Part shown: positions 25,077 through 28,906 of the stretch, in pieces
Position numbering within the stretch: position 1 is the stretch's first letter
Layout: each line of letters starts with the position of its first letter
Sequence record: MZ501090
DNA: 51,474 bases
Strand: one strand, 5' to 3'
Source: Escherichia phage KarlJaspers
The notes under the pieces: generated by a model
What the model was told of the DNA's origin: nothing
What the model saw: only the letters and a program-made list of their open reading frames with translations
Databases searched by the model: none
Program-made: the position numbers and the translations under genes

Positions 25077-25778
25077 TCAGCCGCAACAGCCAGTAGGCGG
25101 AGTCTGAGGAGTAGGCAACTTGAAGTTTACCAATTGCTCTACCTGGTTGATTTTGCAATTCAGTGCGGCGGTCTGGTTTGCCTGAGATAGAGCAAAACGC
25201 GCTTCCTGCAACTGAGCTTTCATATCGCAAATCAAAACAGCCTGAGAATCAGCAAACTGTTGACGAATCAGATCTCGCGTTGCGTTACCTTGTCGCTCAA
25301 TGTTCAGGTTAGTCTCGCAGCAACATCTTTCGGCTGCAATCTGCGCCTGATAGGAACGCTCAAGAGCATTAACATCAGCAGCATTAATCGCAGCAACTGT
25401 CTGGTTAGTACCGCTAACAATCGCGGTATTCAGTCCGGCAAAACCTTGCACCGATGCAAGCAGGCTTTGCGTATTCTGGCTGGTAATGCCGTTAAATGTT
25501 GATGCGGCGGAGCGCTCAACGGTAAGGTTTGTGGAGTTTTGGCCTTGCAGAGTTTGCAGCCCCAGGTTGTTTACGCCTGTCTGGATGTTATTAATACCAT
25601 CAAGAACAGCGTTAGCACCGACAGCAACAGCAGCACCATCACCACCATAACCACCACGACCATTAAAGCCATTACCAAACCAAGACCCAATCAGGCCACC
25701 AACAGCACCGCCAAGACCAGCCGCGCCAGCTTCGCCACCAAAACCACCACCAGTAGGGAGTAAAGTCATATCTGACAT
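25077..25778 (-). CDS. glycine-rich protein with glycine-zipper N-terminus and Cys-rich C-terminus (unknown function)
   Basis: 233 aa; GGGFGGEAGAAGLGGAVGGLIGSWFG; Asn/Gln/Ser/Thr-rich middle; CCC and terminal GCCG. Confidence 0.5.
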   Translation of the reverse strand: MSDMTLLPTGGGFGGEAGAAGLGGAVGGLIGSWFGNGFNGRGGYGGDGAAVAVGANAVLDGINNIQTGVNNLGLQTLQGQNSTNLTVERSAASTFNGITSQNTQSLLASVQGFAGLNTAIVSGTNQTVAAINAADVNALERSYQAQIAAERCCCETNLNIERQGNATRDLIRQQFADSQAVLICDMKAQLQEARFALSQANQTAALNCKINQVEQLVNFKLPTPQTPPTGCCG

Positions 25779-25947: not shown

Positions 25948-26625
25948 TTAAATGTTGTTATTTTTTATTGATTCAATTTGGCTTTTTAATTGCTCTATTT
26001 CTTCTTTCATCCGTTTCACATGATGAATTAGCGGAACAACCAAACGCTCATACATAACGCCTTCTGCAACCATGCCATTGCTTGAGGCGATTTCTGGATC
26101 ATCACCTTCTTGTAATGGCCTCCAGTGAACGTATTCAGACGCAATCTCTCCAACTTCTTCGGCGATCAGTCCATACCAACCCCAATCTTTTCTGTCATTC
26201 TCGCAAATCGACCGATACCAGACAGGACGCATGTCAAACATTCGATCTGCATATTCATCCATAACAGTTTCAACAGATCTTTTGTATCTTTCGGAAGACG
26301 TTGAACGAAGAACGCTTGACACTGCGGCATCTGGATTGAGATACAAGTTTGCGCCAGCGGTTGTTGTTCCAAGTCTAAAAAAGTAAACGGCCTCTTGTGC
26401 TGTTAATGGGTAAAAGTTTCCGCTATGTGTTCCGCCCTCTAATTCATTTGAAAGCTCGCTTTTCTTCATGTACGTCTTTAACTTGTTGTCAACGTCAGAG
26501 CTTGATGGCTTTGTGTTAACTTCTTGCTGCAACGTGGAAACATTGCCTTGCAACGTGGAAACATTGCCTTTTAAAGCAGTTATATCAGCCGGAATATTTG
26601 TTACGGTAGCCATGATTAAGCCCAC
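25948..26625 (-). CDS. tail fibre protein with C-terminal intramolecular chaperone-like domain (putative)
   Basis: 225 aa; tandem NVSTLQG repeat; C-terminal WGWYGLIAEEVGEI...ERLVVPLIHHVK resembles S74 chaperone domains. Confidence 0.5.
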   Translation of the reverse strand: MGLIMATVTNIPADITALKGNVSTLQGNVSTLQQEVNTKPSSSDVDNKLKTYMKKSELSNELEGGTHSGNFYPLTAQEAVYFFRLGTTTAGANLYLNPDAAVSSVLRSTSSERYKRSVETVMDEYADRMFDMRPVWYRSICENDRKDWGWYGLIAEEVGEIASEYVHWRPLQEGDDPEIASSNGMVAEGVMYERLVVPLIHHVKRMKEEIEQLKSQIESIKNNNI

Positions 26626-26894
26626 TCCCTAAGTTTTTGATCCGTCACAACGGTTCTGCTATTGAATAATTTCGCATCGTAATTATCATTAATGATGCGA
26701 GCGTTCACAAAATAACCATCATTTTTCTCTACAATTTCCTCTCCTTCTTCCGTTACAGATACAACAGTGTAAGTGTTCCCGATAACGTCGAGAAGAATTG
26801 CATCCTGAATGGATTCGTTTTCGTTCCATTCAATTTCTTCAAGAAAGGCAGAAAACTCTGCCTTGTCTGCAAATTTCAGTGTTAAATCTCTCAT
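26616..26894 (-). CDS. hypothetical protein (tail-fibre associated)
   Basis: 92 aa ORF coupled between two tail-fibre genes. Confidence 0.4.
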   Translation of the reverse strand: MRDLTLKFADKAEFSAFLEEIEWNENESIQDAILLDVIGNTYTVVSVTEEGEEIVEKNDGYFVNARIINDNYDAKLFNSRTVVTDQKLREWA

Positions 26895-28849
26895 TATACA
26901 ATTTCCCCCAATTGATGATCTGTTAATGCCTTATGCCAGATCCTAAAGTTTCTAATGTGTCCAAACAAATGGCGCTCTCCAGTTCCTGTTTGTCCGCCAA
27001 ACCTGATATTTTTATCTCCTGTTACGCCTATGTAATCGCAGTATGAATCAGACACTGCTATAGCATTGGTGACAACATGAAATTTGCCATCAGATTTTGC
27101 AATGCATCCAAAAGTGGATTTTTTTGCAAACACATCAGATGCCGCGCTATTAATATATGCCCCAGCAGGCGTTGATAAACTCATGTATAATTTTCCACTT
27201 CCTCTATTTATTGCCGCAATTGCTGATTGACCAGTATTTGCAGCAGCTATATCCCAAACACGAGGGGCAGAATTTGGAGCAACATCCCAACACTTACTAA
27301 CCTCAAGCAAAAAAGTAAACGGCAATTTATATAGGTTGTTTTTTGTTGGAATGCTAACAAGATCGCTAGCTCTCGTTGTTGGCATTGAAGTTATAATAAA
27401 TGACGATGCTGTATTTCCAAGTTCAATTTGCGGCGTAGCCATCGTTAACGTTGAATCAGAATAAAATGGTTCGTTGTTAATTTTATTAGTCATGTAAAAT
27501 GCACAATTAACAGTGTCAACATTTGTATTGGCTGTATATGTCGCTTGATAATACATCCATTCGCCATCCTGTTCCACTTTAGCGGTTATAAGTGAAGTGT
27601 CTCCACTTACCGATGCAACCAAAGTATCAAGATCCAAATAAGAATCAGCAGAAAATGTATCTACTCCATCAATAATTGTAGACACTCGAAGCCTGCATCT
27701 TGCTTTAGCACCTTTAACCCTACAAGAAAAGGTGAAACTTTCACCTGACACCAAAGGGAATCTATCGGCTGTAACAACTCCATGAACGGTATAACCTCCA
27801 GTAGTACCAACAATACTTTCTACAGGGGTGACTGTAGCGTAGTTAAAACCACGATCATCCGTTCCGAAAGTTTTATTTAAAGAAGAATGAATAGTCCAAG
27901 AATCTGTTTTATTTGAGTTTCTTAGATAGTTAGTTCTTTGCCCTTCGATTAAAAGACCTTCTTTTTCAAAACGAGGTTCGTCAATCTCCGCAACAGTCAA
28001 TACACCTGATTTGTTAATATAAGTTGCTGTTGAAGCGCGTGAAAATGTAACTACTTTATCTGTTGGCATAGTTATAACATCATTACCAACTGTTATTTTT
28101 TTGTAACCAGGTGCAAAGCCTGTAATCATCTCAAGAGAATCATTAAACGGTATCCACACGTCGGGCAGCGGTTGCAATAAATCTTTGTAAGGTTCTGCGG
28201 CCTGCCTTGCGTATTCCTCCGCTTGATCTCGCGCACTTTCAGCTCCTGCCTTTGCAGTGTTCGCAGCGTTACGCGCGGATTCAGCGCCAGACTTTGCTGT
28301 TTCAGCGCCAGTCTTTGCAGTGTTTGCAGCGTCGCGCGCGGATTCAGCAGCGGTCTTTGCAGTATCAGCGCCTTTCTTGCTGTTTTCTGCATTTGTTGCG
28401 CTTTTCTTCGCGTTATTCTCGCTAGTTTTAGCGGCCTTCTGGCTTGCTGCGGCCGCAGCAGCATCGCTCTTTACGTCAGCCTGTATCTGTTGAAGTTTAT
28501 CCCAATCAAATGTTTCGATGATCTCAATGAATCTGGCAAATTCAGTTTCTTTACCCTGGTAATATCGCAGTGTTTCAGCGACATCTTGCGCCAGGCCATC
28601 AACAGTTATTGAATCATGAAGCATGATCAGATAGTTTGTCTTTGCTACAACAGCGCCGCCAGTAGTAATGGCGCGAATGCTTGTGTCGCTAATAACCTCA
28701 GTGATTACAGCGGCTTGCATTGGATTTGTTAAGAAAAATATTGTTGCACCAGGGCGAATGAGTGTTAGCTGTTCGCGCCATTTTGTGCCGTATCCAGTTA
28801 TATAACCTTGCGCGTCCATTGACGCCTGTCCGGTTCTGTAAATTGCCAT
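26894..28849 (-). CDS. tail fibre protein (Ala-rich repeat shaft, lectin-like C-terminus)
   Basis: First ATG at 28849 with GGGAG RBS (track ORF starts TTG 28903); repeats AxTAKxGAESARxAANTAK; C-terminus RFGGQTG...NFRIW. Confidence 0.6.
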
Positions 28850-28906
28850 GCGTTTTCTCCCATGTTGTATGTTAATGTCAATGCAGATAATAGCATTTGA
28901 CAAGGC

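Follow-up and report, generated by a model that had tools for sequence, protein, structure and literature searches.

A 21-bp tandem repeat in Escherichia phage KarlJaspers (sequence record MZ501090; the window analysed here is the whole stretch of 51,474 nucleotides) is probably the trace of one fixed duplication of a single heptad, GNVSTLQ, in the stalk at the N-terminal end of a small protein encoded in the lateral tail fibre locus. Replication slippage or unequal exchange would have duplicated the 21 bp once, in the common ancestor of the Hanrivervirus-like clade that includes the window phage, and the duplication would have become fixed in that clade. The affected coiled-coil segment would thereby have grown from three heptads to four, a gain of approximately 1 nm, with its register unchanged. 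The C-terminal Peptidase_S74 domain of the protein would drive its trimerisation and then release itself by cleavage at the Thr105-Ser106 bond.

The repeat and the gene that carries it

The repeat is a perfectly periodic run of 43 nt (2 x 21 + 1) in a minus-strand gene (Table 1). Tandem Repeats Finder describes it as period 21, 2.0 copies, 100% matches and a score of 86, and a repeat search of the window resolves it into two 21-nt copies (26528-26548 and 26549-26569) of 100% identity. The initial annotation, which had reported the duplication, called it both perfect and identical at 20 of 21 bases. Both descriptions are right and differ only in phase: with the copies placed at 26530-26550 and 26551-26571, 20 of the 21 bases agree, and a shift by two bases makes all 43 nt perfectly periodic. 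The accompanying statement that NVSTLQG is encoded twice needs a similar adjustment, as the phase chosen there gives NVSTLQG followed by NVSTLQQ, whereas in codon phase the peptide GNVSTLQ is doubled exactly and the sole difference between the copies is CAA against CAG, both encoding Gln.

At an offset of 21 there are 22 consecutive matches, the longest run in the window for periods of 6 to 100. The longest run in 200 first-order Markov simulations was 15, in none of the 200 was a unit of at least 12 nt perfectly doubled, and the analytic chance expectation of the repeat is approximately 4e-7. The 21-bp repeat is thus a non-chance feature. It lies, as had been noted, in frame in the N-terminal part of a protein from the lateral tail fibre locus, where it occupies codons 16-29 of a 221-aa gene.

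Table 1. Features of the repeat, its gene and the surrounding locus, in window coordinates.
Feature	Position	Strand	Description	Basis
S74 mini-protein gene	25948..26613	-	221 aa; stop codon 25948-25950	ORF list, Pfam, PHROG, cluster look-up
92-aa gene	26616..26894	-	phrog_1361, function unassigned; conserved middle gene of three-gene module	
Lateral tail fibre gene	26894..28849	-	651 aa from ATG; 669 aa from TTG at 28903 (ORF finder)	phrog_1419 tail protein, E 1.6e-177
Tandem direct repeat	26528..26570	-	plus-strand unit TGCAACGTGGAAACATTGCCT; coding-strand unit AGGCAATGTTTCCACGTTGCA	TRF, repeat search, offset-run statistics
Heptad copy 1 (codon phase)	26548..26568	-	aa 16-22, GNVSTLQ = GGC AAT GTT TCC ACG TTG CAA	sequence and translation
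Heptad copy 2 (codon phase)	26527..26547	-	aa 23-29, GNVSTLQ, ends TTG CAG	single-copy allele with AGGCAATGTTTCCACGTTGCA duplicated
Whole heptad array, four units	26512..26595	-	aa 7-34, IPADITA LKGNVST LQGNVST LQQEVNT, then KP; probable coiled-coil segment delimited by Pro8 and Pro36	
Peptidase_S74 / intramolecular chaperone auto-processing domain	25951..26298	-	aa 106-221; ends in long helix aa 188-219	PF13884, Foldseek, AF2
Predicted autoproteolytic scissile bond	26296..26301	-	codons Thr105-Ser106	27-homologue alignment
Partner Lys111 codon	26281-26283	-		27-homologue alignment

The window phage is a T1-like coliphage of the BASEL collection. The deposited phages closest to it are phiE31-2 (Hanrivervirus, Tempevirinae, Drexlerviridae; 99%) and morffagbaw (93%). 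The gene with the repeat is the third of a three-gene module on the minus strand, behind a lateral tail fibre gene and a gene encoding a 92-aa protein, and in all relatives examined it keeps this place, two genes downstream of the fibre gene. The module of fibre, 92-aa protein and S74 mini-protein is common to Drexlerviridae, a phage contig of approximately 59 kb and E. coli prophages. The assignment of the lateral tail fibre gene also agrees with the annotations of phiE31-2, morffagbaw and PeterMerian. That gene has a repeat of its own, in which 63 bp occur twice at 28237-28362 (TRF, repeat search).

In the KarlJaspers annotation (QXV82288.1), the product of the third gene is a "putative lateral tail fiber chaperone" of 225 aa that begins at a GTG at 26625; the translation is identical. 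The same length had been given in the initial annotation. Translation probably begins at the ATG at 26613, which would make the 225-aa version too long, because all homologues open with MATVT or MTTVT, the GTG directly abuts a Shine-Dalgarno-like AGGGAG, and the stop codon of the upstream 92-aa gene lies 2 nt ahead of the ATG. Frameshifted copies of the gene occur in relatives, but the frameshifts fall at homopolymer runs between nt 245 and 373, beyond the heptad array, and are unrelated to the repeat.

The protein consists of a short N-terminus, the heptad array, two short helices, a beta module of approximately 45 residues and the C-terminal Peptidase_S74 domain. It matches phrog_3299 (E 2.6e-91) at positions 1164-1384 of a 1385-position profile and the tail fiber family phrog_454 (E 1.3e-29), with further matches to phrog_1699 and phrog_1980; the tail fibre PHROGs are long fibre profiles, which the protein matches at their C-terminal end. 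By homology and by position in the fibre locus it would count as a tail fibre protein. It is nonetheless distinct from the main fibre, and the earlier description as a fibre protein is better replaced by that of a small S74-domain protein of the lateral tail fibre locus, encoded two genes downstream of the 651/669-aa fibre.

The match to PF13884 (Peptidase_S74) covers aa 106-162 and positions 1-57 of the 58-position profile, with a marginal score of 22.4 bits against a cut-off of 22, and precomputed matches to the same family are present on many homologues. Seven residues (S104, T105, S106, S107, Y110, K111 and E115) do not vary among 27 homologues, and they include a Ser with a Lys at +5 and a Thr before it. 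In T5 pb1, the scissile bond is Thr1263-Ser1264 and Lys1269 stands at +5 (PMC4690869). In the AF2 monomer model, pLDDT values of 65-82 are reached only in the C-terminal domain, for which a helix at 188-219 is predicted. The best three families found by Foldseek are all ICA/IMC domains: MyRF ICA (7dc3, E 3.4e-3, probability 1.0), T5 pb1 with its IMC (4uw8) and the endoNF IMC (3gw6), both of the latter at E ~1, with TM scores of 0.3-0.55. The S74 domain is therefore expected to drive trimerisation and then to cleave itself at Thr105/Ser106, which would leave a mature fragment of 105 residues, and more than half of the 221-aa protein lies in the part predicted to be cleaved off. The 105-aa pre-cleavage part contains no recognisable receptor-binding domain. 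The mature fragment may be incorporated into the virion, where it could have an effect on adsorption. Neither Pfam nor the PHROGs gave a match to tail fibre assembly or chaperone families of the Tfa, gp38 or gp57A type, the only matches being to S74 and tail fibre families. Since no trans-acting tail fibre assembly family matches, the "chaperone" label in GenBank probably derives from the name of the S74 domain, although a function in trans is conceivable.

One heptad in a predicted coiled coil

The heptad array was compared across 21 distinct homologous arrays, which hold 56 distinct heptads. Among these heptads, a hydrophobic residue stands at position 1 in 98% and at position 5 in 100%, while each of the remaining positions has one in at most 12%. 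The resulting pattern is I/L-x-x-D/N-V/I-S/T-T, in which the hydrophobic residues at 1 and 5 have the 4-3 spacing of coiled-coil a and d positions. All 21 arrays have lengths that are 0 mod 7 (21, 28, 35, 42 or 63 aa, corresponding to 3, 4, 5, 6 or 9 units), and insertions and deletions in the family are thus quantised in heptads. The 21-bp unit is exactly one heptad. Proline is confined to position 2 of segment-starting units, as in segmented coiled coils, and in longer relatives the Pro-containing IPxDITx unit recurs in mid-array, producing a segmentation.

On these patterns, aa 7-34 probably form an alpha-helical coiled-coil segment built as a trimer, the trimeric state being suggested by the S74 domain only. 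DSSP assigns a helix to aa 12-31 of the AF2 monomer, where pLDDT is 27-39, and values stay below 40 across the N-terminal 100 residues. The best matches to aa 4-42 in a phmmer search were 4lin, a gp26 tail needle (E 0.023), and the T4 fibritin entries 1avy and 1aa0 (E ~0.4), none of them significant, and these coiled-coil matches in the PDB may reflect shared composition alone. A search of PDB sequences with the family profile found no relative, its sole match being a spurious one to an antibody.

Standard coiled-coil geometry has a rise of approximately 0.148 nm per residue. The extension of the first coil segment from 21 to 28 residues would accordingly be modelled as the approximately 1 nm given above, with a small superhelical rotation. 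As the unit is exactly one heptad, only length would be altered and the register would be kept, so that of the two effects named in the initial annotation, a change of fibre length or of register, the former is retained and the latter is not. The extra heptad would probably also stabilise the short coil somewhat.

Distribution and history of the duplication

The locus was aligned for 14 independent sequences, comprising the window, two GenBank phages, one IMG/VR contig, one ENA assembly and nine Logan assemblies, and a midpoint-rooted neighbour-joining tree of the 14 loci was built from 788 ungapped columns. Copy number, for which a comparison across isolates had been proposed, is not invariant. 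Eight of the 14, namely the window, phiE31-2 and six further assemblies, have two copies and group together as one clade, and the remaining six (morffagbaw, ERZ28645655 and four Logan assemblies) have one copy and form its sister clade. Within the two-copy clade, the number is 2 in 8/8 despite up to 26/788 differences elsewhere. In one member, SRR24907419, the AAT of copy 2 has become GAT, which yields GNVSTLQGDVSTLQ. Sequences whose proteins share at least 90% identity include both one-copy and two-copy alleles, which are separated by 17 to 43 further substitutions. For the one-copy alleles found in neighbouring sequencing runs, the number of further substitutions relative to two-copy alleles is 21, because of which they are co-circulating strains of separate lineages and not products of slippage.

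When AGGCAATGTTTCCACGTTGCA is duplicated in the single-copy allele of ERZ28645655, the result is exactly the window sequence, and the morffagbaw type is similar. Because this doubling reproduces the CAA/CAG difference as well, that difference would follow from the phase of the duplication and not from a later mutation, and the window sequence would have accumulated zero change since the event. Three-copy alleles were absent from the protein cluster, the phage records, IMG/VR and the metagenome matches listed, and the scans of IMG/VR gave one relevant contig only, with two copies. Metagenome matches to a 17-mer of the unit (AATGTTTCMACGTTGCA) came from at least 120 loci; among those listed, none had the gene and none had two matches, and they are apparently chance matches in unrelated contigs. 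Two copies in 8/8 and one in 6/6, with no other number, suggest a single, old, fixed event of the slippage type and not a hypervariable locus. The proposal that copy number changes by slippage thus finds support in the difference between the clades and in the heptad indels of the family; within the clades, the number is fixed.

Elsewhere in the family, array length varies more widely. Warwickvirus tonn has three units and PeterMerian four, and SECphi27 and JLBYU01 have six, which arose via a 63-bp duplication of a whole three-heptad block, the Pro-containing first unit included. The E. coli prophage versions have five or six units and P0016/17, the phage contig of approximately 59 kb, has nine. 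The fourth unit of PeterMerian would be an older gain of one that has since diverged, and at the level of the family, heptad-sized changes have been repeated and independent.

Two other histories can be weighed against a single fixed duplication. A contingency-type repeat, in which frequent slippage of 21-bp units would maintain mixed copy numbers and so tune fibre length and adsorption, is unlikely. It could draw on the presence of both copy numbers among closely similar proteins, on the recurrence of heptad indels in the family and on the small 7-bp hairpin that each 21-bp unit can form (-4.3 kcal/mol as DNA, z = -2.0). However, there are just two copies, a number that stays constant in the two-copy clade even where a substitution has arisen inside a copy; three-copy alleles are missing from the sources listed above, and the substitutions between one-copy and two-copy alleles are many. 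The repeat region as a whole, moreover, folds no more stably than its shuffles (z = -0.7, not significant), and promotion of slippage by the hairpin was set aside on that ground. The polarity of the event, for its part, rests on midpoint rooting and on three-unit outgroups of the tonn type, while outgroups of the PeterMerian type have four. It is quite improbable that the ancestor had four heptads, of which the morffagbaw-type sister clade lost one, with the identity of the copies due to conversion or chance conservation. The PeterMerian-type Warwickvirus homologues and a tree that is only midpoint-rooted would be compatible with such a loss. Yet the window copies are identical over 43 nt, whereas units 2 and 3 of PeterMerian have come to differ (AATGATGTTTCTACGATAAAT and CAGGATGTTTCGACACTAAAA); three units occur in Warwickvirus tonn and in both one-copy Hanrivervirus-like lineages; and a clean 21-nt duplication of the single-copy allele is sufficient to yield the window sequence.

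Other alternatives concern what was duplicated. If the stalk had a non-helical trimeric fibre fold, such as a beta-layer or beta-spiral, the duplication would have added one more beta repeat. A fold of this type would suit the high content of Ser, Thr, Asn, Gly and Asp in the units, the Pro of the IPxDITx units and the very low AF2 confidence at the N-terminus. It is nevertheless very unlikely, given the strict 4-3 spacing of hydrophobic residues (1, 5) with polar residues elsewhere, as in canonical a/d positions, the restriction of Pro to position 2 of segment-starting units and the helix that DSSP assigns on the model; the closest sequence matches are, in addition, solved trimeric alpha-helical coiled coils (fibritin GNISSLQGDVQALQ; gp26 NVSALDGRVTTAENNISALQ). 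An artefact of assembly or sequencing, or an element acting at the DNA or RNA level, such as a binding site, promoter or hairpin, is extremely improbable. Short tandem repeats can be misassembled, although nothing specific points to this here, and the two-copy sequence is found in eight independent assemblies from different studies. An antisense ORF of 54 aa (26468-26632, plus strand) spans the repeat but is without support. No promoter-like or terminator-like sites were found at the repeat, their counts being at the level of shuffles, and the fold energy is ordinary, whereas the repeat keeps both the reading frame and the phase of a heptad array found across the family. A fixed one-heptad duplication in a coiled-coil stalk is thus the preferred reading.

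Significance and comparison with known systems

The duplication provides a clean natural example of how the coiled coils of phage fibres may change length by whole heptads, through tandem duplication and with the register undisturbed. The 214-aa and 221-aa alleles of closely related phages are ready test pairs that are close to isogenic. The annotation gains a probable start at ATG 26613, a mini-fibre-like protein with a predicted self-cleaving S74 domain and a shared three-gene module, and the current view of phage adsorption is unchanged by the duplication. A more far-reaching possibility is that heptad count, which ranges from 3 to 9, is an adaptive ruler of length or stability. The self-cleaved 105-aa trimer, a coiled coil with a minimal beta cap, would then be a virion stub or a branch on the lateral tail fibre, its reach retuned by gain and loss of heptads as host surface glycans change; the duplication in the KarlJaspers clade would be a recent selected step, and the module an undescribed fibre architecture. 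This extended scenario is, on present indications, rather unlikely.

Several characterised appendages resemble parts of this protein. The gp26 tail needle of P22-like phages, with T4 fibritin the closest precedent, has a trimeric coiled-coil shaft with 11 heptads in P22 and Sf6 and 16 in HS1, a range of 11-16 (PMC3741392). Heptad number thus varies among relatives there too, the motif resembles that of the window protein (NVSALDGRVTTAENNISALQADV), and no PDB sequence matches aa 4-42 better than 4lin, although this match (E 0.023) is not significant and does not imply homology. The needle differs in having its own N-terminal plug domain, a C-terminal tip or knob and a much longer coil, and in lacking an S74 chaperone.

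T4 fibritin (gp wac) reportedly forms a trimeric coiled coil that is divided into segments and carries a C-terminal trimerisation element. Its heptad motif is nearly the same (AKGNISSLQGDVQALQEA vs LKGNVSTLQGNVSTLQQE), and its segmentation resembles that of the longer relatives of the window protein. In fibritin, however, an uncleaved foldon takes the place of the S74 autoprotease, the protein is a neck whisker, and the match has an E value of only ~0.4.

Intramolecular chaperones of the S74 type have been well characterised in T5 pb1 and the K1F endosialidase (PMC4690869). The window protein shares with pb1 the Thr-Ser pair followed by Lys at +5; a C-terminal helix that may serve a trimeric coil is predicted for it, and its best Foldseek matches are to the domains of MyRF, pb1 and the endosialidase. 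In those systems the domain caps a large fibre or spike, with pb1 having 1396 aa, whereas the pre-cleavage part here is 105 aa and its cleavage is predicted.

A lateral fibre locus split into more than one structural gene is also found in the T5-like phages DT57C and DT571/2, in the form of the two-protein, branched lateral fibres LtfA/LtfB (PMC10713586), and for small siphoviruses the BASEL study notes a like diversity of architecture (PMC8594841). LtfB, unlike the window protein, is a full-size receptor-binding fibre, and attachment of the 221-aa protein to the 651-aa fibre is hypothetical. According to the BASEL study, the lateral fibre loci of Drexlerviridae are very diverse, one or several proteins per fibre are possible, and binding of O-antigen by these fibres has never been directly demonstrated (PMC8594841). 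Variation of heptad number in the trimeric coiled-coil appendages of phages is already established, and the KarlJaspers case is a further instance of it; what is mildly unusual is the very small size of the protein that hosts the S74 domain, and that it is kept with a 92-aa partner behind the fibre genes.

Heptad repeats

The N-terminal array of seven-residue units in the S74 mini-protein (a 221-aa Peptidase_S74 protein), which carries the 21-bp duplication in KarlJaspers, is expanded separately, and on a larger scale, in two Warwickvirus relatives. In SECphi27 and JLBYU01 (nucleotides 301-450 of loci L148 and L149; protein P0014), a 63-bp tandem repeat doubles the entire three-heptad block, including its proline-containing first unit, to give IPGDITN LKNDVST LKQDVAT followed by IPGDITK LKSDVST LKQDVAG.

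A second in-frame repeat lies in the KarlJaspers lateral tail fibre gene, where TRF reports 2.2 copies at 28233-28372. Its unit encodes 21 residues, or three heptads, in a stretch rich in Ala, Lys, Ser and Glu. The repeat is probably a further one of coiled-coil or fibre-shaft type at the locus that also holds the 21-bp duplication.

Start and integrity of the S74 mini-protein gene

The deposited KarlJaspers annotation, which gives 225 aa from a GTG start, is probably four codons too long (region 26611-26625). The ATG at 26613 agrees with the start of all homologues. It also comes 2 nt after the TAA of the upstream gene, a spacing that suggests translational coupling between the two genes.

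Several deposited relatives carry a truncated or interrupted S74 mini-protein gene, with breaks that fall mostly in homopolymer runs and outside the heptad array (see table). These could be sequencing errors, or they could reflect true loss on rough laboratory hosts.

Features of the locus in KarlJaspers and breaks in the S74 mini-protein gene of relatives
Sequence	Feature	Position	Strand	Detail
KarlJaspers	Glycine-rich protein, 233 aa (MSDMTLLPTGGGFGGEAGAAGLGG…; CCC, C-terminal GCCG)	25077-25778	-	phrog_9288, E 2.5e-124
KarlJaspers	Two in-frame tandem copies of a 63-bp unit, inside lateral tail fibre gene 26894-28849	28237-28362	-	83% identity
orkinos, AV105	Gene break	nt 245		C5 to C6
JLBYU10	Gene break	nt 250		+CC
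ityhuna	Gene break	nt 373		-G
IMG/VR contig UViG_3300009997_000011	Gene break			GAA to TAA stop
phiE31-2, SECphi27	Gene break	A-run near 3' end of gene		1-nt changes

Gene neighbourhood

The glycine-rich protein gave no match in a Pfam search. In the Hanrivervirus-like loci examined, a gene of 233-236 aa, near it in size, lies immediately downstream of the S74 mini-protein gene. Upstream, the gene order is conserved, with a large fibre (645-712 aa) followed by an 89-92-aa protein (phrog_1361) and then the S74 mini-protein (214-269 aa). In KarlJaspers the fibre gene occupies 26894-28849 and the gene for the small phrog_1361 protein 26616-26894. Drexlerviridae, a ~59-kb phage contig and an E. 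coli prophage all keep this order; in the prophage, the three genes adjoin the integrase. The trio behaves as a mobile three-gene module.
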